From an uncultured Eubacteriales bacterium (GTDB taxonomy: Bacteria > Bacillota > Clostridia > Christensenellales > Borkfalkiaceae): a stretch of DNA of 64,000 nt. Made by a program: the position numbers and the translations under genes. The stretch lies in NCBI GenBank assembly GCA_900540805.1, contig UQHL01000004.1, forward strand, positions 101,323 through 165,322, in the 5' to 3' direction. This document shows positions 47,518 to 61,743 of this stretch, in pieces (positions within the stretch are counted from its first letter, which is position 1; each line of letters opens with the position of its first letter). Below the pieces are notes generated by a model. It saw nothing but the letters and a program-made list of their open reading frames with translations, was not told the DNA's origin and searched no databases.

Positions 47518-48048
47518 TTACTTGCCGAACTTATCTTTATACATAGAAATACACTTGTTTATAATTTCCACGGCTTCGTCTCTATGACAGATTTCCTTAA
47601 CCGTCGTCTGTTTATGTTCGAGCGTTTTATAAACCTCGAAAAAGTGCATCATTTCGTCGAATACGTGATTGGGTAATTCATGGATATCGTAATAGCCGTT
47701 ATAGGTCGGGTCTTTGAAGGGAATGGCGATCACTTTCTCGTCCAGGGAACCGCCGTCGATCATTTTGATCACACCGATGGGATAACAGTTGATGAGGGTC
47801 ATGGGATAAATCGTTTCCCCGCAAAGCACCAACACGTCCAGCGGGTCGCCGTCCTCGGCAAGCGTTCGGGGAATAAAGCCATAATTGGCGGGATACACCG
47901 TAGAGGTATAGAGAACGCGGTCCAGCTTCAGAAGGCCCGTTTCCTTATCTAATTCGTACTTTACTTTACAGCCTTTCGGGATCTCGATCAGCGCCTCGAA
48001 GCTTTTCGCTTTTATCCGTTCTTCGGAAATATCGTGCCAGATATTCAT
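47518..48048 (-). CDS. ppa: inorganic pyrophosphatase (family I)
   Basis: EIPKGxKVKYE and DGDPLDVLV motifs. Start at MNIWHDI with AAAGGAG RBS. Confidence 0.85.
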
Positions 48049-48297
48049 AATTAAATCACTCCTTTGGGACGGTCCGTTTATTTGTCTTTTATAATAATAT
48101 TGTATCATACTTTCCGATTTTTCGCAAGAGTTGGAAATAAGCTTTCAAAAATTTCCCCGACGGATATCCCGAAAAAAGACTTTTATAGGTTTACCGTTTT
48201 ACGCGAAAAGGGCAAAAGGCTTTTAATCAGTTGTTTTTTTCAAAAAAACATGCTATAATGGGAACGCTTACCTTAAATCGTTTTTATCGGAGAAACT

Positions 48298-49569
48298 ATG
48301 CTGAAAGAGAAGATGAAAAATTTCGGAAGCAGTATAAAAAGTGCGGTTAAAAATTTCTTTAAGAGAAAAAATCCCGCCCAATTTTTTATCGCGATGATGG
48401 CGTTGAGCCTTATTATATGGCTCGTCAGTTCGCTCATCGTCGGAGAAAAATTTTTCACGGGAATCTTTTTTAATAACGGCACCGACCTTTTTATGGATTA
48501 TTTTAATTCGATCAGAGATGTTTTTCAGGGCATAGGCGTCTATACCGAACGACATGTTATCTATCCGCCTATGGCGAATCTGATTTTTCTTTTGTGCCTG
48601 CGTTTTGTCCCGGACGAATATGCCGCAACTTCTTTTAACGATCGTTATCTATGGGTCAATTATCCTTCGGCAATTTTGTCCTGTTTATTGTTTATACTTA
48701 TTTTTGCCGTTCTGTTTTTATTGCTTTGTCAACGGTATATGCGCTTTAACGGGAAAACAAAGCTCCTTTTTTCTTTTTTCCTGTTGGCCAACGTGCCCAT
48801 GCTTTACCTATTGGAGCGCGGAAATATTATTTTGATTTCCACCCTTTTTACAGGTATCTATATTTTTACTTATGACAGCAAAAGTAAGCTCGCCCGAGAA
48901 ATAGGGCTTTTCTCTCTTGCATTCGCCTTTTCCATTAAATTATACCCCGCCGCGTTAGGTTGGATGCTGATCGCAGATAAGCGCTATAAAGAGGCCTTAC
49001 GGTGCGTAATTTATGGAATTTTACTGCTGATTATCCCCTCGTTTTTTTTCGGTGGGCCGAAATGCCTTATTTGGATGATGGAAAATATATTTTCCTTTTC
49101 GTCGGGAAATAGTGGTTGGGACACAATTTCTCATGCAGTGCATATTCCCGTAATCGTTTTGAAAATAATATTTTATATCGGAATAGTAACCTGCATCGTC
49201 TTTTTTATTCTTTCGTCTTTTTTTCAAAAAGAGCGTTGGAAGGTCTGGACGTTTGCTTGTGCATTATTTATGGCCGCCCCGCCGTTGCATGCCGTTTACG
49301 GTTGGAATCTTTTTCTCATTCCCCTTATTTTACTTTGCAATGAAAAAACATTAAACGGAAAAAATCTTCTATATTTCCTTTTCATTGCTTTTCCGTTTTT
49401 ATTTATTCCCGGGGTCTTTCCTCCCGGCATCTCCAATTCGAATATCACAATAAATGAAGTCGTCATTCTTTTATGTCTTATCGCCCTTCTTATACTTTGC
49501 ATTGTCGATACGTTTTCGGCAATTACAATCAGGCAAAAAGAAAAAAATAATGTTTCCGCTGATTTTTAA
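48298..49569 (+). CDS. polytopic membrane protein, GT-C-like putative glycosyltransferase/polymerase
   Basis: 423 aa with ~11 TM. Loop with acidic residues (TDLFMDYFNS) after TM1. Low-GC. No family confidently recognised. Confidence 0.55.
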   Translation: MLKEKMKNFGSSIKSAVKNFFKRKNPAQFFIAMMALSLIIWLVSSLIVGEKFFTGIFFNNGTDLFMDYFNSIRDVFQGIGVYTERHVIYPPMANLIFLLCLRFVPDEYAATSFNDRYLWVNYPSAILSCLLFILIFAVLFLLLCQRYMRFNGKTKLLFSFFLLANVPMLYLLERGNIILISTLFTGIYIFTYDSKSKLAREIGLFSLAFAFSIKLYPAALGWMLIADKRYKEALRCVIYGILLLIIPSFFFGGPKCLIWMMENIFSFSSGNSGWDTISHAVHIPVIVLKIIFYIGIVTCIVFFILSSFFQKERWKVWTFACALFMAAPPLHAVYGWNLFLIPLILLCNEKTLNGKNLLYFLFIAFPFLFIPGVFPPGISNSNITINEVVILLCLIALLILCIVDTFSAITIRQKEKNNVSADF

Positions 49570-49603
49570 CTGAAGAAACAAACAAGGAAGTCAATTTTCT
49601 ATT

Positions 49604-50662
49604 ATGTACTATGTAAATGAAAATATTAAAAACACAAAAAGAATTTTTCCTCAACAGGGCAGATATGCGTATAAGAGATATGATATGAACGAAAATCCCG
49701 AGGGCCTTCCCAAAGCTTTTGTCGATTCAGTCCTCAAGGAAATCACGCCCGAATTTTTGTCCGTTTATCCCGAGCCTGACCGTTTTCTAAACAAATACGC
49801 TTCTTTTGTCGGGGTAAGCTACGACAATGTCCTTACGACAAACGGTTCCGACACGGCGATACGATATCTTCTCGAAACTTTCGGAGAAACGAAAAAAGAA
49901 GTTGTAACCGTCTCTCCTTCCTTTGAAATGTATGGGGTAAACTGTAACATACTCGGTTTGAAGCACGTCCCGGTCTCCTATGAAAAGGATCTGACGATAA
50001 ATATTGAAAATATTTTGCGCGCGATTACTTCCGATACCCGTGTTGTTGTTCTTTTGAACCCTAATAATCCAATAGGAAACGTTTATACCCGGGAAGAAGC
50101 GGAACAAGTGATTATCAAGGCACAACAAGTCGGAGCAATCGTTATTATAGATGAAGCTTATCACTACTTTTATAGACATACCTTTCTCGATTTTATCGAG
50201 CGCTATGACAACGTAGTTATTTTAAGAACTTTTTCAAAGCTTTTTTCGCTCGCCGCTTGTCGATTGGGGGTAATACTCGGCAATCCGGCGTTGATTTCTT
50301 ACGTAAAAAATGCCCGGTTGACATTTGACGTCAACTCCGTCGCTTTACTTTTCGGTGAACGGATTTTAGAGCGTCCCGAGTTGATTGAGTATTTAATAAA
50401 ACGGCAGGAAGAAGGAAAGAGTTACACGCTTAACCGCTTGAAGGAATATGGTTATGAATATCGGGACTGTAAAGGGAATTTTATCTTTATCAAGCCTTTG
50501 CATGACGCAAGGACTATCGCGGAAAAGCTGCGTGAAGAAAAAAAAGTTTTAGTCCACGCTTACGGCAATCCCCTATTAAAGGACTATATACGTGTTTCCG
50601 TCGGATCAATCGACGCAATGAAGATATTTCTAAATGCGTTCTTCGAGGTCGATCACAAATAG
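49604..50662 (+). CDS. class I/II PLP-dependent aminotransferase (histidinol-phosphate aminotransferase-like)
   Basis: LNPNNPIGN and the PLP-lysine context FSKLFSLAACRLG, characteristic of HisC/CobD-like enzymes. Confidence 0.8.
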   Translation: MYYVNENIKNTKRIFPQQGRYAYKRYDMNENPEGLPKAFVDSVLKEITPEFLSVYPEPDRFLNKYASFVGVSYDNVLTTNGSDTAIRYLLETFGETKKEVVTVSPSFEMYGVNCNILGLKHVPVSYEKDLTINIENILRAITSDTRVVVLLNPNNPIGNVYTREEAEQVIIKAQQVGAIVIIDEAYHYFYRHTFLDFIERYDNVVILRTFSKLFSLAACRLGVILGNPALISYVKNARLTFDVNSVALLFGERILERPELIEYLIKRQEEGKSYTLNRLKEYGYEYRDCKGNFIFIKPLHDARTIAEKLREEKKVLVHAYGNPLLKDYIRVSVGSIDAMKIFLNAFFEVDHK

Positions 50663-50692
50663 CTTTTGCTATAGGATAAGGGAAAACAAAAG

Positions 50693-52021
50693 ATGAAAAA
50701 AGTAATAACTTACGGTACGTTTGACATGCTTCATATTGGTCATATCCGTTTGCTGGAAAGAGCAAAGGCTTTAGGCGATTATCTGATTGTAGGGATTACG
50801 TCCGCAGGCTTCGATATGGCACGGGGAAAACTGAATGTCCGGCAAACTTTGACCGAGCGCATAAAAGCCGTTATGAATTTAGGAATAGCCGACGAAGTCA
50901 TTGCCGAAGAGTACGAAGGCCAAAAAATCGACGACATCAAACGCTATAACATTGATATTTTCGCTATCGGTTCCGATTGGGAAGGAAAATTTGATTATTT
51001 GAAAAACTATTGCGAAGTAGTGTATCTCGAAAGAACAAGGGGAATTTCAAGTACGGAAATCCGTTCCCGCAACGTTATACGAATGGGTATTGTAGGATAT
51101 TCTTCAATGTCGGAAAAATTTATTGAAGAATGCAAATATGTAAACGGCATAGAAGTACAGGCTATTTATACAAAATCTTACCCTCCTCCCGCTGCTTTGA
51201 GTTTTAAGGAGGCAAATGCCTGTTATCTCTTTGACGACTACGAAAAATTTCTTTCTGAAATTGACGCCGTCTATATCGTCTCCGATCCAAAGACGCGATA
51301 CGGCTACATTAAAAAAGCACTCATTGAGAAAAAGCACGTTTTGTGCGAATCTCCCGTTTCTTTAAGCCGTGAACAAACCATCGAACTGATCACGTTGGCA
51401 CAGTCGAAAAATCTCATTCTTTTTGAAGGCATAAAAACAGCCTACGTCCTTGCCTTCTCTCGACTTATTTCGCTTGTTCGCAGCGGAATTATAGGGGCAG
51501 TTAAATCCATCGATTCTACTTGCACCAGTTTAAGAAGCACTTCGGAAAATAACTGGGGAAGTCTGCTCGATTGGGGCGCGATCGCCATACTTCCGATTTT
51601 TGAAATTCTCGGTACGGAGTATATAAAAAAAGATATCATTTCCTATTTCGGCAATGCCGACGATATCGATCTGTTCACGAAAGTATCTTTTATTTATCCA
51701 AAAGCAACTGCGTCCTTAAAGGTCGGCATAGGCGTCAAATCGGAAGGAGAATTGGTTATTTCGGGAACGCGCGGTTATGTCTATGTTCCCGCTCCCTGGT
51801 GGAAAACGGAATATTTTGAAATCCGTTTTGAAAATCCTGCTGAAAACAAGAGATACTTCTATTCGCTGCATGGCGAAGGCATAAGATACGAGATATCCGC
51901 CTTTTCTGAAATCATTCAGAGAAAAACGGAAAATTATTATATTAATAACGATATTACCATTGCGATCAGCGGATTAATGGAAGATTACTGTAATAAAAAA
52001 GACGTAACGCTTATTTGCTAA
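50693..52021 (+). CDS. bifunctional protein: N-terminal TagD-like cytidylyltransferase fused to Gfo/Idh/MocA oxidoreductase
   Basis: N-terminus YGTFDMLHIGHIRLLERAK (HxGH nucleotidyltransferase motif). Residues ~130-440 carry a Gfo/Idh/MocA Rossmann + C-terminal fold. Confidence 0.75.
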   Translation: MKKVITYGTFDMLHIGHIRLLERAKALGDYLIVGITSAGFDMARGKLNVRQTLTERIKAVMNLGIADEVIAEEYEGQKIDDIKRYNIDIFAIGSDWEGKFDYLKNYCEVVYLERTRGISSTEIRSRNVIRMGIVGYSSMSEKFIEECKYVNGIEVQAIYTKSYPPPAALSFKEANACYLFDDYEKFLSEIDAVYIVSDPKTRYGYIKKALIEKKHVLCESPVSLSREQTIELITLAQSKNLILFEGIKTAYVLAFSRLISLVRSGIIGAVKSIDSTCTSLRSTSENNWGSLLDWGAIAILPIFEILGTEYIKKDIISYFGNADDIDLFTKVSFIYPKATASLKVGIGVKSEGELVISGTRGYVYVPAPWWKTEYFEIRFENPAENKRYFYSLHGEGIRYEISAFSEIIQRKTENYYINNDITIAISGLMEDYCNKKDVTLIC

Positions 52022-52067
52022 ATTGTTTGCCCTTCAATCGCACTGCGTTTTTTACAAAGGAGAAAGT

Positions 52068-52871
52068 ATGGAAAAGCTGGAAAAAATTCATTCGGTTCTT
52101 TTCGATATGTTGAGAGAAATCGCCTCTTTATGCGATAAATATGAGATCGAATATTTTTTAGATTCGGGGACGTTATTGGGTGCGGTAAGGCATCAGGATT
52201 TTATTCCTTGGGACGACGATGCCGATATCGCAATGAAAAGAAGCGAATATGAAAAATTTCTAAAGGTAGCGGACGAGCTTCCCAAGCCCTATCTTTTGAT
52301 TCAACCGCAAGATTATGGCGGATACTTTTTTGATTTTGCGCCGCGCGTCCTCAATATGGATGAACCTTTACATACGGAAACACACGAAGACATTGCACAA
52401 AATAACTATCAAAATCGTATGGCCGTCGATATTTTTTTATTGGACAATGCCCCTGATGACTTAAAAGCATTCCACAAGATGGTATTAAAGCAAAAAATCT
52501 TTTACGGATATGCAATGGCGCATCGTTTCAATAAAAAAATGCATTCGCATTCTTTAAGTGAAAAGCTGAAAATTTTTATTTTATCTTTTCTGGGAAAATT
52601 CCATTCTCTTAAAAACATTTTGAAAAAGCAAGAATGCTTAAGCACTGCTTACAACAAAAAAGACACCAACTACTATTGTTTTACAAACGTTATTCTTAAA
52701 GAAATCGGGAATCGTTATTCAAAAGAATGGTTTGATTCCTCCGTGAAGCTTCCTATACGCGACGCTCTCTTTACCTGTCCCGCGGGATACGATAAAACGC
52801 TGACTGCTTTATACGGCGACTATATGACGCCTCTGCCTCCGGAAGAACGCTATCCCTCTCATATCGATTAA
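52068..52871 (+). CDS. LicD family phospho-alcohol transferase (uses CDP-activated alcohols)
   Basis: FLDSGTLLGAVRHQDFIPWDDDADIAM, the hallmark LicD motif. AAGGAGA RBS. Confidence 0.8.
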   Translation: MEKLEKIHSVLFDMLREIASLCDKYEIEYFLDSGTLLGAVRHQDFIPWDDDADIAMKRSEYEKFLKVADELPKPYLLIQPQDYGGYFFDFAPRVLNMDEPLHTETHEDIAQNNYQNRMAVDIFLLDNAPDDLKAFHKMVLKQKIFYGYAMAHRFNKKMHSHSLSEKLKIFILSFLGKFHSLKNILKKQECLSTAYNKKDTNYYCFTNVILKEIGNRYSKEWFDSSVKLPIRDALFTCPAGYDKTLTALYGDYMTPLPPEERYPSHID

Positions 52872-52936
52872 ATTTAGATAAGGAAAAAACCGCTGCATTT
52901 TGCTATTATCAGCAGTAATTCAAAGGAGGAAATTAG

Positions 52937-53400
52937 TGGATAAAATCGCCGTGCTCGTTCCCTGCTACAACGAAAGCAACACGATCGAAAAGGTAGTAAA
53001 CGACTTCCGCCGCGTCCTTCCCGACGCGATCATTTACGTGTATGACAATAATTCCACCGACGACACCGCGGCCATTGCTCTTGCAGCCGGAGCGGTAGTT
53101 CTGCACGAATACATGCAGTGAACAGGAAACGTGATCCGAAGGATGTTTCGGGAAATCGACGCCGAATGCTATATTATGGTGGACGGAAACGATACGTATC
53201 CCGCGGAAGCCGCGCCCGAAATGGTGCGTAACGTTTTGGAAAAAAACAGCGATATGGTCGTCGGCGATCGCCCTGATCATGTGGTTCGGAGTAAATATCT
53301 GTCACGGAAATTATAAACTGATAAAAATCATTTCCACCGCCGTCGTTATGGTGTTCAACTTCGTCACAAAAAAATTGACTCTCTCTAAAAGATAAACTTT
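52937..53400 (+). pseudogene. family 2 glycosyltransferase (DPM1/GtrB-like), disrupted: in-frame TGA after ...VLHEYMQ plus internal deletion/frameshift
   Basis: 52937..53121 encodes VDKIAVLVPCYNESNTIEKVV...DNNSTDDT. An in-frame TGA is then followed by ...NVIRRMFREIDAECYIMVDGNDTYPAE... (53131..53316). A C-terminal TM remnant (ISTAVVMVFNFVTKK) sits in another frame. Confidence 0.6.
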
Positions 53401-54842: not shown

Positions 54843-57800
54843 TCAAAATAATGACAATTGCTGTGCCCACGGCTTTTCGAGTGCTTTTTCTCTCTTTACA
54901 TTCGAAGGCAATTCCGCAAGAAACGGCGAAGGATCGCCTCTGGTTGTCAAAACGAGCTCCTCTATTGCGCGGGTAATGCCCACGTAAAACAGGCGGCGTT
55001 CCTCTTCCTCGTCCGTTTCCCGCGAAGAAACGAGCGGCAGTACCTTTTCGGTAAGTCCGCAGAGGAATACGACGGGGAACTCCAACCCCTTGGCGCCGTG
55101 CAGCGTAGCCAGTCTCACGGCTCCCGCGGCCGCGTTTCCGCTGGGGAGCAAAACGTCGCCCTCCTTGCCCAGATACACCGCGTCGAGAAATTCGTCCATG
55201 GCCGCGTAATGCGCGGCTTTTATCAGTTCTTCAAATTCCGCGGAAGTTAAATGCAGATATTCCTTCCAGGCCGTCAAAATTTTTCTCGGTCTGCCTCCGA
55301 TAAGCGGCAGAAATTTTTCTTTCGCCGCTTCAAAATTTTCGCGCCCGCCCATAAATTCCAACGCCTGCGCTTCAGCCGCTTCGTTCTGCGCGAGCAGGGC
55401 GGCAAAAAACGCAAGGGTACCGCTCACCGCGGGCGCTTCGAGAAATTCCGTCTTACCCGAAACGACGCAGGGAATGTCGTCTCTCCTTAAACAATGCTCG
55501 ATTTGGGAAAGCTGGCGATGCGTGCGCGCAAGCACCGCAATCTCTCCAAATTCCCGCAGCCCTTCCTCCCTGCCTTTGCCGAGCATGTCCAGCCCGCCCG
55601 TCATGCGCGCGATTTCTTTGGCCACAAATATCCCCTCGGAAAGCTCCGAAGCGCAATCGACCAAACGAACGGCCGCCCCCGACGGCTTGCACGCCTCGAG
55701 CACGCGCGCGCCCGAATTATGCGAAACGACGTTCAGCGCGCAATCGATCACCTCGGGCGTCGAGCGGTAATTTTTCGTCAGCCGCACGGTAAGCGCGTCG
55801 GGATAATCCGCCGCCAGCATTGAAAAACAATCGGACGCGGCGCCGCGGAAGGAATAAATGGCCTGATCGGGATCGCCGATCGCAAACAGCCGCCCCTCTT
55901 CGCCCAGCCACAGGCGGATCAGCTCGTACTGCGCGGGATTGACGTCCTGAAATTCGTCCACGTGCAGATAACGGAATTGTTTTCCCTTTATCTTTCGCTT
56001 CAGCGCTTCGGAGATGAGATCGTCGTAATCCAGCATTCCCGCCGCCCTCAAGCGTCGGTTATATTCCGCCGCCGCGTCCGTTTCCGTCTCTTTGCCGTTT
56101 TTCACGGCGGATACATGATTCAAAAATTTGCGGGGAGCAAGCTTTATCCCGTATTCCGCGACGACCTCGGCCGCGGTTTTCAGCATAAAAGCAGGGTTCG
56201 CCAAAGCGAATTCGTCTTTCAAAAAGGAAAAACAAATTGAGTGAAAGGTGCCCACGGTAATCTTTTCCGCCGCTTTTTTCAACCGCGCCGAAAGCCTTTC
56301 GCGCATTTCGGCCGCGGCTTTGACCGTGAACGTCACCGCGGTAATCTCCGCAGGCTTCACGCCGCTTTCCACCAGGCGCACGATCCGCTCTACCAGCGTA
56401 AACGTCTTGCCCGTGCCGGGGCCGGCGACGACCGCCGTCACGCGCGCTTTGCTGTCCGCCGCGGCTTCCTGTTCGGCGTTTATTCCGCGAGGGTCTCTCT
56501 CCCCGCTTTCGTTTTCGTTTTTTTCTTCTTTCCCCTTTTTGAATTTTTCCCCACGGTCGGTTTCCCCGTCCCGCGCGGCCGCAAGGGGTAAGTCGCTTAA
56601 AAAAGACATCTGCCCGCTTGCGTTTTTCAGCTCGTCGGGGGTAAAGAGAGCTATTTTACCGTATTCTCCGTCATATCCCGCCGTTTTGATAACCCGTTCC
56701 TCGCGCAGCCGCCTTATGCCTTCGGCTATCCTCTCGCCGCCGGCCTTCTCAATATCGCCGAGCGAGCGGACGCGCAGGATTTCCGCCTCCGCCCCCAGCT
56801 TTGAAAGCAGCTTACAATATACCCGTTCCGCCTTATCGCCCGACGCGGAAATCCCCAGCGACGCGGCAATCACTTCGGGCAGGGGCATGAGATACTCGAA
56901 ACGTTTTTCTTTTTCGGAAATATATGTCTCGTCCCGTTCCGCCAACTGCTCCAGCCTGTTGAGTACCCCGATCGTGATTTTTTTACCGCAAACGGGACAT
57001 TTCCCCCCCAGCGCCCGCGTCTCCTGCGGGGTCAGTCTGAGATGACAGGCTCTGTGCCCGTCCAGATGGTATTTACCCTCCTCGGGAAAAAACTCGACGG
57101 TGCCGAGGAAGCCTTCCCCCGTATCGAGCGTCCGCTTAAGTGCGGGGTAGGAAAGCTCCGCATCTATCAGATTGCTTTCCCTGCCGAGCTTGGCGGGAGA
57201 ATGAGCGTCGGAATTGGAGACCAGCGTGTAGCGGTCCAACTGCGGAACGCGCCGATTCATGCGGGGATCGGAGGAAAGCCCCGTCTCCATGGCGCGGATA
57301 TGCGGCGCCAGGTCTCCGAAGCATTCTTCGACAGTATCGAAGCCCGAAAAAGCGCCGAACATAGAAAAATGCGGCGTCCAGATATGGGCGGGAATAAAGA
57401 TCGCTTCGGGGCATATTTCCAGCGTTATTGCGAGGAGGTCTTTCGACGACAACCCGAGTATCGGCCTCCCGTCCGAACGGATATTTCCGATAGTCTCCAG
57501 CTTCAGTGCCAGGCGTTCGGCGGCGTCGAGAGAGGGCAGCAGAATCAGATTATGAACCTTCCGCACCTTTCCGTCCTGCTTATAAATACAGCTGATCTCC
57601 CCCGATACCACGAAACGGGGTTCTATGGAAAAGTCGCAAAAATCCTTCAACCGTTTTTCAGGCTTGATACGATACAACCCCTCTTCCGCGGGTTCCAGCG
57701 TATCGGCCATCTCCCCGCGCCAGGCGGGATGCGTAAAATCGCCCGTTCCCACCAGCTCTATCCCTTTCCGACGCGCCCAAAAATCCAGATTGGGAATGTC

Positions 57801-57860
57801 TCCGTTTTTGCTTGTCGCTCTCGAATATTTCGAGTGAATGTGTAAGTCCGCTATATACAT
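54843..57860 (-). CDS. fusion protein: N-terminal EndoQ-like PHP-domain nuclease with zinc finger + C-terminal compact UvrD/PcrA-type SF1 helicase
   Basis: N-terminus MYIADLHIHSKYSRATSK..., SNSDAHSP, CPVCGKK (EndoQ/TIGR00375-like). C-terminus has Walker A AGPGTGKTF, DEFQD, YRST and GAKGLEFPVV helicase motifs. Start set at 57860 after promoter TTTACA-17-TATAAT. Confidence 0.75.
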   Translation of the reverse strand: MYIADLHIHSKYSRATSKNGDIPNLDFWARRKGIELVGTGDFTHPAWRGEMADTLEPAEEGLYRIKPEKRLKDFCDFSIEPRFVVSGEISCIYKQDGKVRKVHNLILLPSLDAAERLALKLETIGNIRSDGRPILGLSSKDLLAITLEICPEAIFIPAHIWTPHFSMFGAFSGFDTVEECFGDLAPHIRAMETGLSSDPRMNRRVPQLDRYTLVSNSDAHSPAKLGRESNLIDAELSYPALKRTLDTGEGFLGTVEFFPEEGKYHLDGHRACHLRLTPQETRALGGKCPVCGKKITIGVLNRLEQLAERDETYISEKEKRFEYLMPLPEVIAASLGISASGDKAERVYCKLLSKLGAEAEILRVRSLGDIEKAGGERIAEGIRRLREERVIKTAGYDGEYGKIALFTPDELKNASGQMSFLSDLPLAAARDGETDRGEKFKKGKEEKNENESGERDPRGINAEQEAAADSKARVTAVVAGPGTGKTFTLVERIVRLVESGVKPAEITAVTFTVKAAAEMRERLSARLKKAAEKITVGTFHSICFSFLKDEFALANPAFMLKTAAEVVAEYGIKLAPRKFLNHVSAVKNGKETETDAAAEYNRRLRAAGMLDYDDLISEALKRKIKGKQFRYLHVDEFQDVNPAQYELIRLWLGEEGRLFAIGDPDQAIYSFRGAASDCFSMLAADYPDALTVRLTKNYRSTPEVIDCALNVVSHNSGARVLEACKPSGAAVRLVDCASELSEGIFVAKEIARMTGGLDMLGKGREEGLREFGEIAVLARTHRQLSQIEHCLRRDDIPCVVSGKTEFLEAPAVSGTLAFFAALLAQNEAAEAQALEFMGGRENFEAAKEKFLPLIGGRPRKILTAWKEYLHLTSAEFEELIKAAHYAAMDEFLDAVYLGKEGDVLLPSGNAAAGAVRLATLHGAKGLEFPVVFLCGLTEKVLPLVSSRETDEEEERRLFYVGITRAIEELVLTTRGDPSPFLAELPSNVKREKALEKPWAQQLSLF

Positions 57861-57865
57861 ACTTT

Positions 57866-57894
57866 CATTATAACCTTGTTTTTCGGATTTGTAA
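57866..57894 (-). promoter_or_regulatory. promoter TTTACA-17-TATAAT for the nuclease-helicase gene
   Basis: Minus-strand hexamers immediately upstream of the ATG at 57860. Confidence 0.45.
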
Positions 57895-58062
57895 AGAATA
57901 CAAACGGTTTTCGGCAGGATTTTTTTAATAAATTTTATAAAACCGATCAAAAGTCAAAACCCCTTACCTCCCCTTCCGCAAATAACCCTATCCGTCGAAA
58001 AAATCAAAAGCCGACGACATACTTTTTCCAAAAAAACACCGACGTGAAAATTATTTTGTTGC

Positions 58063-58089
58063 ATGAAAATTTTTTCACAAAATTTTCAT
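58063..58089. promoter_or_regulatory. perfect 11-bp inverted repeat ATGAAAATTTT-TTCAC-AAAATTTTCAT (candidate operator)
   Basis: Exact palindrome in the AT-rich region at the left edge of the low-GC island. 18 nt upstream of a consensus promoter. Confidence 0.4.
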
Positions 58090-58106
58090 TTTTCTTAAAA
58101 ACCCGC

Positions 58107-58135
58107 TTGACAAATCTTTTAGAAAGGGATAGAAT
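58107..58135 (+). promoter_or_regulatory. consensus sigma-A promoter TTGACA-17-TAGAAT with no obvious sense-strand gene
   Basis: Would transcribe antisense through the 58241..58513 gene toward the XRE regulator. Target unclear. Confidence 0.4.
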
Positions 58136-58240
58136 AAATTCATAAAAATGTTTACACATCCAAATAAATTTTGTGAGAAGTCGTACTTCGCGAGAGGTAC
58201 GGCTTTTCTTTATGAGAGACAGTCTGCTTTGATGATAATT

Positions 58241-58513
58241 TTAATTTTCTTCATAGTCCGCGCCCTCCGCAGCCTCTAATCCCATAAGCAACCCAAATTT
58301 GAAGCCTTCCAAATAATGATTATCTTCCGCCTCACAATTCAAAAAGTCAAGAGCTGTGGTCGCGTTTTTGTATAAGTCCAATAAATGAGGAAATTCGGAA
58401 AGCTGCGCCCTCATTTCCTCGTCTTTTTTAACAAATTCCTCTAAAAGTCTGAAATATTCGTCGCTGCACGGCACCTTTTCAAAATTTCCTCTCTCCGTGT
58501 AGTACATTTGCAT
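58241..58513 (-). CDS. hypothetical small acidic protein (divergent partner of XRE regulator)
   Basis: ~90 aa starting MQMYYTERGNFEKV (AAAAGGAAA RBS). No recognisable family. Confidence 0.5.
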   Translation of the reverse strand: MQMYYTERGNFEKVPCSDEYFRLLEEFVKKDEEMRAQLSEFPHLLDLYKNATTALDFLNCEAEDNHYLEGFKFGLLMGLEAAEGADYEEN

Positions 58514-58641
58514 AATTGCCGATTTCCTTTTCATAAATTACCTCTTTACTTTATTTAATCACAATCGTGATTATTTATATTATAGCAACCGCGATTGGTG
58601 TTTGTCAAGCATTTTAATCACGTTTGTGGTAAAATAGTAAC

Positions 58642-58845
58642 ATGGAAAAATTTATCGAAAGATTAAAAGAGTTACGCGCTCAAAAAGGATTGTCTCAGGC
58701 ACAGCTTGCCAAAGCGACGGGGCTGAGCCAAAGCGCCATAACTTATTGGGAAACGGGAAAGAGAATCCCCAACGCATATGCAGTGATTATTCTTGCAAGA
58801 TTTTTTGATGTATCAACAGATTACCTATTGGGTGAAGAAGATTAA
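58642..58845 (+). CDS. XRE-family (Cro/C1-type HTH) transcriptional regulator
   Basis: 67 aa, LSQAQLAKATGLSQSAITYWETGKRIPN helix-turn-helix. Confidence 0.8.
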   Translation: MEKFIERLKELRAQKGLSQAQLAKATGLSQSAITYWETGKRIPNAYAVIILARFFDVSTDYLLGEED

Positions 58846-58888
58846 TTTTTCCGCTGCGGAATAACGAACGGGCTTTTTATACGCAAAA

Positions 58889-58931
58889 AAAGGACTTAGG
58901 CTGATGGTGTTCAACCTAAGTCCTTTTTTTG
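58889..58931 (+). terminator. rho-independent terminator after the XRE gene
   Basis: aaggacttagg...cctaagtcctt 11-bp stem + TTTTTTT. Confidence 0.65.
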
Positions 58932-59230
58932 TTCTGGCGCAGAAGGCGGGATTTTCTACAATACTATATATTGTGTTTATTTTGAGAATATAACCACTAT
59001 ATATTGTATATTTTTGCCTTTAGTAACATTTTAGTAATATATCAAATTGTTTTTACTCTAATATAGTGCGGTTCTACGGAGCCGCTTTTTCGTTAAAAAG
59101 AGGGCCGAACCTATAAAAGTCCGACCCTCTCTCCTTTGTTCTTAACCGCGTTTAACGAGATAATTATATCACTTTCATGTTGAGTTGACAAGCGTTTTTG
59201 CTGTTGAGGGGAAAAATTAGTCAAAAACAT

Positions 59231-59650
59231 CTATTTGCTCTCAGTTGGAGCATTATCAACTAAGGCATTTACATCAATAGGTTGGAGCAAAATAGGGGTT
59301 AAACCAGGTTGAGTAGTTAATAAAGAAACTTGGCTACGAATAAACGGCATCATAATTGCTACCGTATTCTTTTTTAAAATCTCATTAGCAATTTCTTCAC
59401 TAAAATTTTCTCTTTCCAGTCTAAAAAATCCTAAAGCAGTTAAACTTAAATCAAAATTTTTCTCTTCATCAAATATTGTTGTGACTATTTGAATTTTTAC
59501 TTGATTTCTATCATCATCTTTTTCCGCATAGTCAATATTATAAGTTGACAATAATTTTAACGGTTTACCGTTTCCTTTAAATTTGAAAGAATACGCCGGA
59601 AAATAGAAACTGATCATTTCCAGCTTACTCTTGAACTCATTATCACCCAT
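59231..59650 (-). CDS. SecB-like chaperone (third component of a toxin-antitoxin-chaperone module)
   Basis: C-terminal half VAIMMPFIRSQVSLLTTQPGLTPILLQPIDVNAL matches the SecB signature region (cf. E. coli ...LFPYARE...FPxLNLxPVNFDAL). Confidence 0.6.
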   Translation of the reverse strand: MGDNEFKSKLEMISFYFPAYSFKFKGNGKPLKLLSTYNIDYAEKDDDRNQVKIQIVTTIFDEEKNFDLSLTALGFFRLERENFSEEIANEILKKNTVAIMMPFIRSQVSLLTTQPGLTPILLQPIDVNALVDNAPTESK

Positions 59651-59674
59651 TATAAGGTCTCCTTTTTTGTAATT

Positions 59675-60076
59675 TTAGGCAGCCGTCTCAACCGTATCAA
59701 TGAGCGTATAACTCCCTGATAGGTCGTAACATCCCTTCATCTCTACCGGTAATTGCATCTTTATCGGCGAAAATGCAGTTTGAAAATCTTTCTCTTCTCC
59801 GTTTTTATCGACCACTGTTACTTTTCGAATTTTTTCTAACAACTCTGGATTCTCGGAAATAAGAGAAAACAAAACCGCGCTACTTCCAACAACCTTATTA
59901 GTCCCCTGTTCCCATTTTTCTACTGCTTTTTTAGTAACTCCCATCACGTTCGCTAAAGCAATCTGGGTTAATTTAAATTTCTTTCTGAAATCTTTAACAA
60001 ATTTACTGCTAATATCAATTTCAAGATAAGAAACAACCACCCGCTCACTGTTCATTAGTCCATTAATGTTGATCAC
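59675..60076 (-). CDS. HTH (XRE/HigA-MqsA-like) antitoxin with C-terminal extension (putative chaperone-addiction segment)
   Basis: LTQIALANVMGVTKKAVEKWEQG HTH. ~60 extra C-terminal residues. 4-nt overlap with the toxin gene. Confidence 0.6.
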   Translation of the reverse strand: MININGLMNSERVVVSYLEIDISSKFVKDFRKKFKLTQIALANVMGVTKKAVEKWEQGTNKVVGSSAVLFSLISENPELLEKIRKVTVVDKNGEEKDFQTAFSPIKMQLPVEMKGCYDLSGSYTLIDTVETAA

Positions 60077-60510
60077 TTTTGGCCTCCATTTAACTCTTTA
60101 ATATATTCATCCACAAGCTCTTTTAATTTATTCCGATCGCTTGCGGAAATATTCTCGTTTTCGCCGTGTCCATGTCTATATATATGTAAAAGATATCCGA
60201 AATGGTTAATGTTATCTACAAGGACTATACAACGATATCCGTATGATTTTCCTTCTCCTCTTTCTTTATCATCGCTTCTAAGCTTCGAATAGTTTGCCTT
60301 TCTTTCTTCCCCCCAATAAATAACTTGATAAGAAGGTCTGTTTTCTCCCATCTTTAATTCTTCAGCAATATTTTGCGCAATTCTTGCCAATTCCTCTTTC
60401 CGTAATTTCTGTCTTTTTATATCTTTGATTATATTATAGGGAGTAAAAGGTTTAAATTCTTCCTGTATTTCTTCAAAATTAAGGCTGACTTTATATTCTA
60501 CATACCCCAT
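60073..60510 (-). CDS. putative RelE/ParE-superfamily toxin (HigB/Gp49-like)
   Basis: C-terminal ...YGYRCIVLVDNINHFGYLLHIYRHGHGEN...RNKLKEL resembles HigB-type toxins (cf. M. tuberculosis HigB1 ...HEANNHFRVLFFRWG). First gene of the toxin-antitoxin-chaperone order. Confidence 0.45.
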   Translation of the reverse strand: MGYVEYKVSLNFEEIQEEFKPFTPYNIIKDIKRQKLRKEELARIAQNIAEELKMGENRPSYQVIYWGEERKANYSKLRSDDKERGEGKSYGYRCIVLVDNINHFGYLLHIYRHGHGENENISASDRNKLKELVDEYIKELNGGQK

Positions 60511-60828
60511 ATACTTCTCCCAATCTTTTGTACCCTACATAATAGGGTATATCCAATATACTACAAATTAATCTTTTTGTCAACAGTTTTGGTAAAAATA
60601 TTTTTTAAATCACTACATTGATTATTTGATTTCGTTTCAATAGCAAAAAACGGAATTGATAATATTATAGCCCATAAATAGCCTGTGTCAACCCTTTACT
60701 GCCAACTTTTTTCTAAAAAGCACAAAAAACCCCGACAAAGCAGTATTACCTGCCCTGTCGGGGTGTTCTTCAATCATCATAATCATGCGAAGCAAGCACG
60801 GCTACGAGCCAAATCAGAAATATCGTAA

Positions 60829-61743
60829 TCATGCGTTCTCCTTCGGATTCGCTTTGCACCACTTTTCGCACGCTTCGGCTTCAGAAGCTCTCAACTCGTT
60901 TCTCTTGATTTCTTTTCGAGAGATATTCCAGCCAAACGAGGTCTTGAATGCAATATAAATCATCATTGTAATAATCTTTATTACAGCCGCGATAATCACT
61001 TCTTTTGACAGATTTAGTACCACGTCCGAAACCAAAGAACACACGAACACTGAAGAGATAAGCGTCGTAAATATAGACTTCACCGTATCCAACCTATCCT
61101 CACGCTCTGTGTTATACATCTCCGACGGAGATTTGCTGCTGTCTATCTCGCTTTTGAATGAAAGGATAAAGTTCGGATCATATGGCTTTACGCGAATTTT
61201 ATCACACCTGCGAATTGCCTTATACTGCTTTTGGTTTATCTCTCCGTTTTTTATCAGGGCACGGAGTTCTCGGCTTTCCAAACCTATAAAACGTTTTTCA
61301 TAGTCCTGAACGGTCAATCCCACAACGCTTAAATACTGTGTCCGCGCTCGTCTTATCACTTTTTCCGTATATTCTTCGCAATACCGCGGCACCTGTCCCA
61401 CATACTCGGAATCGCTTAACTTCTTTATAGCCTCATTCGCCTTTTTATCTGCGTCGTTATATTCTTCCGTACTTCGTCCCTTATCTCTGGCTATCTTCTT
61501 CGTCAGCATTCCTACCGACACCGTACCCGCGGCAAACCACAACGTATTGAACGTAATTTCCTTAATGCTGAAGCTTCCCGACATATCAAATACGATCAGA
61601 TAGGACGCTATCAAGGCGGTAAAAATAATAACGTCTATGATAGTCAGCAAGCCGTCCACAAATGCATTTTCTTTCTTTTCCTTAATCCTCGGCGCGTAAA
61701 TAAAAGGCGCTTCTTCTTTCTTATCTTCTATTTTCTTCATCAT
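60829..61743 (-). CDS. hypothetical membrane protein (2+2 TM with large central cytoplasmic domain)
   Basis: 304 aa. Last gene of a 5-gene translationally coupled operon. Low-GC. Confidence 0.6.
   Translation of the reverse strand: MMKKIEDKKEEAPFIYAPRIKEKKENAFVDGLLTIIDVIIFTALIASYLIVFDMSGSFSIKEITFNTLWFAAGTVSVGMLTKKIARDKGRSTEEYNDADKKANEAIKKLSDSEYVGQVPRYCEEYTEKVIRRARTQYLSVVGLTVQDYEKRFIGLESRELRALIKNGEINQKQYKAIRRCDKIRVKPYDPNFILSFKSEIDSSKSPSEMYNTEREDRLDTVKSIFTTLISSVFVCSLVSDVVLNLSKEVIIAAVIKIITMMIYIAFKTSFGWNISRKEIKRNELRASEAEACEKWCKANPKENA

Follow-up and report, generated by a model that had tools for sequence, protein, structure and literature searches.

Toxin-antitoxin-chaperone (TAC) systems with HigBA, MqsRA, HicAB, and "MqsA-like" antitoxins have been catalogued in seven phyla, including a firmicute, a distribution attributed to horizontal transfer (PMC3581621; PMC5105189). 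In Escherichia coli, HigBAC and CmdTAC, both encoded on prophages, act in defence against phages, set off by competition of a phage structural protein for the chaperone (bioRxiv 10.1101/2024.02.24.581848; PMC11618068). Published chaperone-addiction (ChAD) elements have spaced aromatic anchors, and the antitoxins HigA1 of Mycobacterium tuberculosis and CmdA end in Val-Ala and Ala-Ala, respectively, both of them ClpX degrons (bioRxiv 10.1101/2024.02.24.581848; PMC6377645). The HigBA2 pair of Vibrio cholerae has been made chaperone-dependent artificially by grafting the M. tuberculosis ChAD (PMC5105189). The locus described here is a trio of toxin, antitoxin, and SecB-like chaperone genes in a 64,000-nt stretch of DNA (the window) from an uncultured Eubacteriales bacterium, contig UQHL01000004.1, positions 101,323 to 165,322. 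The host is an uncultured, monoderm Christensenellaceae/Clostridia bacterium of the human gut. With good confidence, the locus can be described as a self-contained TAC operon, a moron cassette that a temperate phage, integrated in the genome of this gut Christensenellaceae bacterium, carries at its end.

The three genes are all on the minus strand, in the order toxin (60073..60510), antitoxin (59675..60076), chaperone (59231..59650), and are closely spaced or overlapping, as an earlier note on the window had proposed. The GTG start of the antitoxin gene overlaps the TGA stop of the toxin gene by 4 nt (GTGA), a spacer of 24 nt separates the antitoxin stop from the chaperone gene, and each gene is preceded by a ribosome-binding site (GGAGG for the antitoxin, AGGAG for the chaperone). 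The features of the cassette, including those of its helix-turn-helix (HTH) antitoxin, are as follows.

59066..60861, minus strand: whole mobile cassette (1.8 kb, 34.7 % GC), with terminator, promoters, operator, three genes, and terminator
60729..60764, minus strand: intrinsic terminator of the upstream prophage gene, a stem of 15 pairs, 9 of them G-C, and then a T-run; part of the block conserved at 99 %
60664..60691, minus strand: predicted promoter-like site P1, TTGACA-16-TATAAT, 12/12 consensus matches
60555..60583, minus strand: predicted promoter-like site P2, TTGACA-17-TATATT, 11/12 consensus matches, kept across lineages
60531..60549, no strand assigned: candidate operator, perfect palindrome TACCCTA-ttatg-TAGGGTA, from 5 nt past the -10 box to 20 nt short of the ATG
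At the operator palindrome: candidate antitoxin target sequence, TACCCTATTATGTAGGGTA
60073..60510, minus strand: toxin, 145 aa, ATG start, of RelE fold and HigB2 type (divergent PF06296), its N-terminal helical region being longer
59675..60076, minus strand: antitoxin, 133 aa, GTG start, with N-terminal segment 1-22, MqsA/HigA2-type HTH at about 23-86, and tail 87-133 ending in Ala-Ala
59675..59818, minus strand: part coding for the putative ChAD tail (residues 87-133 and stop codon)
59231..59650, minus strand: SecB-like chaperone, 139 aa (PF02556, PD-T4-9_C, and PDB SecB profile match)
59095..59134, minus strand: intrinsic terminator closing the TAC operon, with U5 after a hairpin of -26.8 kcal/mol (z = -6.4 vs shuffles)

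That the three genes form one unit is supported by comparison of related loci. A public assembly index lists the exact toxin in 458 blocks, and every locus read carries the same antitoxin and chaperone after it. Diverged toxin homologues (36-51 % identity) are found in other Clostridia, namely Acutalibacteraceae, Congzhengia, and metagenome-assembled genomes of uncultured Clostridia or Clostridiales, and 185,579 species representatives contain only five loci of this kind. Wherever the contig reaches far enough, the genes again stand in the order toxin, antitoxin, chaperone, in ten lineages and in several cases at non-phage chromosomal sites; the chaperone gene starts 10-140 nt past the antitoxin gene or slightly overlaps it. 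All of the TAC hallmarks that can be tested in sequence are present: gene order, a SecB (PF02556) third gene, and a variable C-terminal antitoxin extension. Of the hallmarks of HigB2-type toxins, the RelE fold with an extended C-terminal helix is present, and a PF06296 score above the Pfam threshold is not. The defining features of the M. tuberculosis HigBA1 (Gp49, PF05973), MqsRA, and CmdTA types were also sought and are absent from the locus. PADLOC gave no match for either toxin or antitoxin; its one match in the trio was that of PD-T4-9_C to the chaperone.

The cassette is distinct in composition and conservation from its surroundings. Its GC content compares with 46.9 % in the phage part and 51.7 % in the host; the "low-GC island" of the earlier note is indeed low in GC, but comes down to these 1.8 kb at a prophage end. 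The block is 99.0-99.6 % identical in loci L002, L005, L006, L007, and L027, while its flanks there are unrelated or only 89-94 % identical phage genes, and the host flanks differ. This shows that different prophages have swapped the cassette. Across the 7 kb compared, a metagenome contig matches the window with 100 % identity, and on that contig the genes upstream of the TAC module run on into a tail-fibre gene. An integrase and a Bro-N gene are present in one related locus, and the cassette is also found on one IMG/VR viral contig. In the nr database, the three proteins occur under a Caudoviricetes sp. virome assembly with the machine labels "Toxin HigB-2", "YgiT family", and "SecB"; an annotated phage collection yielded only a single partial match, to the chaperone. 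The earlier note had found it unusual to see such a module in a low-GC island of a Clostridia-like genome. It is rather to be expected in a horizontally acquired low-GC segment of this kind, since TACs have been reported as horizontally transferred in seven phyla, a firmicute included (PMC3581621).

Two other contexts of the cassette may be mentioned. In L006 (6431-9280), an identical copy adjoins a HicA/HicB toxin-antitoxin pair in a different prophage, which suggests a hot-spot for toxin-antitoxin or defence genes. In L004 (2169-9280), it lies within a small element (integrase, Bro-N, five small genes, TAC) between polyphosphate kinase and helicase genes, which may be a prophage remnant or satellite.

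The terminator at 60729..60764 is predicted to insulate the cassette from phage late transcription. At P2, the alignment of the ten lineages shows no variation in TTnAC of the -35 box or in the columns of the -10 box. The palindrome (TACCCTATT-n-AATAGGGTA; ACCCTAT-N3-ATAGGG) occurs at the same position, between the -10 box and the ribosome-binding site, in 10/10 lineages, although the bases around it diverge. A conserved palindrome amid diverged sequence is consistent with autorepression by the HTH antitoxin; it is likely to be the autorepression operator, and the antitoxin presumably binds it. No terminator was found between the antitoxin and chaperone genes in the window. Still within the conserved block, just past the chaperone stop and about 25 nt ahead of the operon terminator, there is a TG-extended promoter-like site on the minus strand (59163-59191, TTGTCA-17-TATAAT), which could yield a transcript of about 60 nt. 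A scan of 58000-61000 against Rfam found no RNA family, the best match for this site being ar35 (E 0.29).

The earlier note had recognised the chaperone as SecB-like from a signature in its C-terminal half, and the Pfam SecB model PF02556 bears this out with 38.1 bits (gathering score 26; E 1.7e-9) over residues 14-131. NCBIfam SecB models, including TIGR00809 (E 1.4e-9), match far under their equivalog cut-offs, so it is better called SecB-like than a housekeeping SecB. It also matches PADLOC PD-T4-9_C, the model for the CmdTAC chaperone CmdC (E 1e-10). A single-sequence search of the PDB gave nothing meaningful; a family profile was needed, and that built from nine lineages matched only the SecB structures of Haemophilus influenzae and E. 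coli, end to end.

The antitoxin combines an HTH domain with a C-terminal extension. It matches HTH_3 (24.9 bits against 23) and, more strongly, MqsA_antitoxin PF15731 (35.2 bits, threshold 30), in the latter case with the HTH half only (profile positions 69-131). These matches and that of the chaperone to SecB clearly exceed what chance would give. The zinc-binding N-terminal MqsA domain (CxxCG twice) is not matched, and the N-terminal region has no cysteines. A 27-sequence profile of the antitoxins matches the C-terminal domain of E. coli MqsA and V. cholerae HigA-2 about equally, and both of these end at profile position 84, equivalent to residue ~86. The nearest structures to the antitoxin model are HigA2 (HTH domain TM-score 0.89, root-mean-square deviation 1.0 A) and then MqsA. 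Residues 100-133 have AlphaFold confidence (pLDDT) values <50. Given these end points and the low pLDDT, residues 87-133 make up a 47-aa, probably disordered extension. The HTH and the extension anticipated by the earlier note are thus both there, the tail being shorter than the roughly 60 aa it had estimated; nor is the extension a structured domain of non-TAC relatives.

The length of the antitoxin tails ranges over 38-57 aa among the lineages, and their sequences align poorly. What they have in common is an acidic-aromatic motif, located 10-14 residues past the HTH (EKDF98 in the window), and an aliphatic C-terminus. These features match those of published chaperone-addiction elements. In two relatives of the HTH, P0023 and P0028 (97 and 108 aa), the tail is missing and neither SecB nor this toxin is adjacent. 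Tail-less close relatives are paired with other genes, in L026 (1143-2257) with an RlaP nucleotidyltransferase and in L019 (219-1539) with proteins of 122 and 211 aa of no known function; other small systems thus seem to employ this HTH module as well.

The only Pfam family that the toxin matches is PF06296. Among the Gp49/HigB models, there was no match at E<=1 to PF05973 or PF09907, which the earlier note had named for a check, or to PF05015, and no MqsR match in the Pfam search; the type is instead HigB2/PF06296. The RelE-like character that the note had proposed for the 145-aa protein is well supported. The AlphaFold model (pLDDT 88.2; predicted TM-score, pTM, 0.84) has a four-stranded sheet and a long C-terminal helix (123-142), and a Foldseek search of the PDB places V. 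cholerae HigB2 first (E 6.9e-4, probability 1.0), followed by RelE, YoeB, and HigB toxins, with M. tuberculosis HigB1 at rank 23 (E 0.15). As with the chaperone, a single-sequence PDB search gave nothing meaningful, and a family profile was needed; it produced sequence matches only to V. cholerae HigB-2 chains (E about 0.09). Twelve homologues share an invariant or near-invariant core, GKSxGYRCIVLVD...LLHIYRHGHGE..NIS. The clade is small: a search of 1.84 billion representatives gave 219 clusters at E<=1e-3 and, at the stricter limit of E<=1e-10, 87. PF06296 is the only Pfam family in nine of ten distant relatives sampled, one of which passes the threshold, and some members of the clade itself reach or exceed it. 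We conclude that the protein is a divergent, N-terminally extended HigB2-type toxin with a RelE fold; by homology, it would be an RNase.

A mechanism can be proposed from these parts. A single sigma-70-type promoter would drive all three genes, and the GTGA overlap probably couples translation of the antitoxin to that of the toxin. The toxin most likely cleaves mRNA in the ribosomal A site, to judge by its homologues. The antitoxin would neutralise it through its conserved N-terminal segment, as V. cholerae HigA2 does, and its MqsA/HigA2-type HTH would bind the conserved palindrome over the transcription start and repress the operon. The 47-aa disordered tail would act as a chaperone-addiction element, with the antitoxin unstable or aggregation-prone unless a SecB-like tetramer holds the tail, whose terminal Ala-Ala may serve as a ClpX-type degron. 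This role is suggested by the disorder of the tail, its absence in chaperone-independent relatives, the strict co-occurrence with SecB, and the analogy with M. tuberculosis HigA1, E. coli HigA, and CmdA. A superinfecting phage would then bring in an abundant structural protein that competes for the chaperone; with the antitoxin gone, the toxin would halt translation and abort the infection. Tentatively, the clade may be regarded as a natural compact form of chaperone-addicted HigBA2, with a His active-site variant and a minimal two-motif ChAD (38-57 aa), passed as a plug-in cassette between the phages of uncultured gut Clostridia and with the SecB-like protein sensing competing phage structural proteins. 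The chaperone would then be dedicated entirely to immunity, since the hosts are monoderm and have no housekeeping SecB.

Several points weigh against this proposal. The toxin itself scores below the PF06296 threshold (18.8 bits against 27, E 0.002). Lys84 of the HigB2 active site aligns with the near-invariant His115, so that either the chemistry of the toxin differs or the alignment of this loop is shifted by a few residues. The degron idea is not uniform over the family, because the tail ends in ...PxVAxx in most relatives and in ...ETAA in the window. The correlation of tail and SecB comes from two tail-less relatives only, whose gene surroundings are quite different. Toxic action, dependence on the chaperone, and defence against phages are properties that we infer, and the anti-phage step, which is probable, is drawn only from the prophage location and the precedents of E. 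coli HigBAC and CmdTAC.

It is also conceivable, if rather doubtful, that the cassette is a selfish addiction or stabilisation element, in which post-segregational killing retains the prophage or the cassette itself and the chaperone only folds an unstable antitoxin, with no sensing of phages. The cassette moves as a discrete unit and at 99 % is more conserved than its flanks, so that it looks like a recently spreading element; its relatives also occupy ordinary chromosomal sites without phage genes, and V. cholerae higBA2 stabilises plasmids (cited in PMC5105189). Yet both of the E. coli prophage TACs studied in bioRxiv 10.1101/2024.02.24.581848 defend against phages, as do PD-T4-9/CmdTAC and MqsRAC (PMC9519451, as cited there), and the variable end of a prophage is a typical place for defence morons. 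Selfish and defence roles are in any case not mutually exclusive.

It is unlikely that the toxin is something other than a ribosome-dependent mRNA endonuclease, being either inactive or directed at another target. The HigB2 active site comprises R51, R64, Y82, and K84, and loss of K84 lowers activity 3000-fold (PMC5416850); the His at this position gives this reading some weight, as do the longer N-terminus and the only moderate TM-scores of the model to HigB2 (0.45-0.56). RelE-fold "toxins" can moreover be non-toxic, as with M. tuberculosis HigB2 and HigB3 (PMC9098466). Nevertheless, the other three HigB2 residues, R51, R64, and Y82, align with conserved R78, R93, and Y111 of the toxin, and throughout the clade these, H109, and H115 vary little or not at all, an argument that the active site has been preserved. 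A catalytic His is used by other RNases of the RelE family (YoeB, YafQ). The strict retention of antitoxin and chaperone also implies a toxic activity in need of neutralising. Least probable is an ordinary two-gene HigBA2 pair with a chaperone-independent antitoxin, lying by chance beside a SecB-like phage chaperone of unrelated function, for example in the folding of virion or secreted proteins. Firmicutes do have sporadic SecB homologues that lack toxin-antitoxin partners (PMC3581621), but here SecB follows the antitoxin in every complete locus of all ten lineages, down to 36 % toxin identity and at non-phage sites too, within 10-140 nt or overlapping and with no intervening terminator in the window, and the antitoxin has a disordered extension that its chaperone-independent relatives lack. 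The tail-less relatives, for their part, have no SecB.

The genes around the cassette do not appear to belong to the TAC operon. The earlier note had placed the module next to an XRE switch and an unknown five-gene operon, and both neighbours are there. The XRE gene (58642-58845) was considered as a regulator of the module but rejected as part of the unit, since it is missing wherever the cassette is flanked by other sequence. The "operon" consists of prophage late-region genes downstream of a tail-fibre gene; a functional tie to the TAC was likewise rejected, since a strong terminator separates the two and these genes are missing in L006. The XRE gene, a repressor of the RstR/CapH-like kind on the plus strand, forms a divergent pair with a minus-strand DUF6809 gene (58241-58845, 35 % GC) between the cassette and the host helicase gene. 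This pair is absent in L002, L005, L006, and L027 and travels with the helicase-side flank in L001, L003, and L004, and is therefore a separate small island.

Directly upstream of the cassette is a gene for a 304-aa membrane protein (60829-61743), which has counterparts of the same length in the related prophages L002 and L005. These have no detectable nucleotide similarity to it, whereas the two neighbouring genes match at 93 % and 99 %, so that the gene has the look of a hypervariable allele. The helicase gene (54843-57950, minus strand) encodes a 1035-aa protein with a UvrD-type helicase region and a weak MJ0043_C match, for which a PHP-like N-terminus is a guess, and is the host gene beside which several different cassette-bearing prophages are integrated. 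A second low-GC block (48000-53000, 38-41 % vs ~52 %) contains four plus-strand genes of 282-442 aa. LicD and glycosyltransferase genes neighbour it on the matching contig, and our guess is a surface-polysaccharide cluster.

The view of how TACs work is unchanged by this cassette. What it adds, if that is its role, is a wider range for chaperone-gated toxin-antitoxin immunity: beyond E. coli and mycobacteria, it would reach phages of the abundant, uncultured Clostridia (Christensenellaceae) of the human gut. Its short natural ChAD and clearly footprinted operator should be convenient for dissecting chaperone addiction, and its swapping among prophages should be useful in annotating the defence content of gut viromes.

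Among described systems, the HigBAC of E. coli NT1F31 is similar in being a prophage operon of toxin, antitoxin, and SecB, with a translation toxin of the RelE superfamily and an HTH antitoxin bearing a disordered ChAD with spaced aromatics; a chaperone-competition trigger has been proposed for it, as it is here for the window system. Its ChAD is 96 aa long with four aromatic clusters, vs 47 aa and two in the window. The toxin-antitoxin unit of the window, unlike that of HigBAC, is of the HigBA2/PF06296 type, and its host is a monoderm gut Clostridia bacterium. The HigBA1-SecB(TA) system of M. tuberculosis (Rv1955-Rv1957), whose architecture the earlier note had seen in this locus, is alike in gene order, logic, and SecB-like chaperone. 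Its toxin-antitoxin unit, however, is of another family: HigB1 is Gp49-like, unlike the window toxin, which with its antitoxin resembles V. cholerae HigBA2, and the HTH family of the antitoxin differs as well. The HigA1 extension confers chaperone addiction and ends in the aliphatic dipeptide degron Val-Ala, where the window tail ends in Ala-Ala. The M. tuberculosis TAC is chromosomal and stress-linked, and that of the window phage-borne.

The V. cholerae HigBA2 structures (PDB 5JAA, 8A0X) are the nearest solved relatives of the window toxin and antitoxin, with the same toxin-first order, a neutralising segment N-terminal to the HTH, and the equivalents of R51, R64, and Y82 kept. The window toxin is 35 aa longer than HigB2, and Lys84 is replaced in it by His. 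A chaperone is lacking in HigBA2, and the window tail begins at the point where HigA2 stops; the clade looks like the natural counterpart of the artificially ChAD-grafted HigBA2. CmdTAC/PD-T4-9, from the hypervariable region of a P2-like E. coli prophage, shares with the window a prophage variable region and an Ala-Ala antitoxin end, and its chaperone model matches; CmdT, however, is an mRNA ADP-ribosyltransferase, and neither the toxin nor the antitoxin of the window matches any PD-T4-9 model. The "MqsA-like" TAC antitoxins, as described by Sala et al. 2013 (PMC3581621), resemble that of the window in having a partial MqsA domain (the HTH half), SecB after it, and an unclassified toxin before it. 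The "MqsA-like" class may include this clade; the toxin partner in the window is assigned to the HigB2 type. Overall, rather than a new kind of system, this is a well-supported further example of a TAC, with known prophage and anti-phage precedents.

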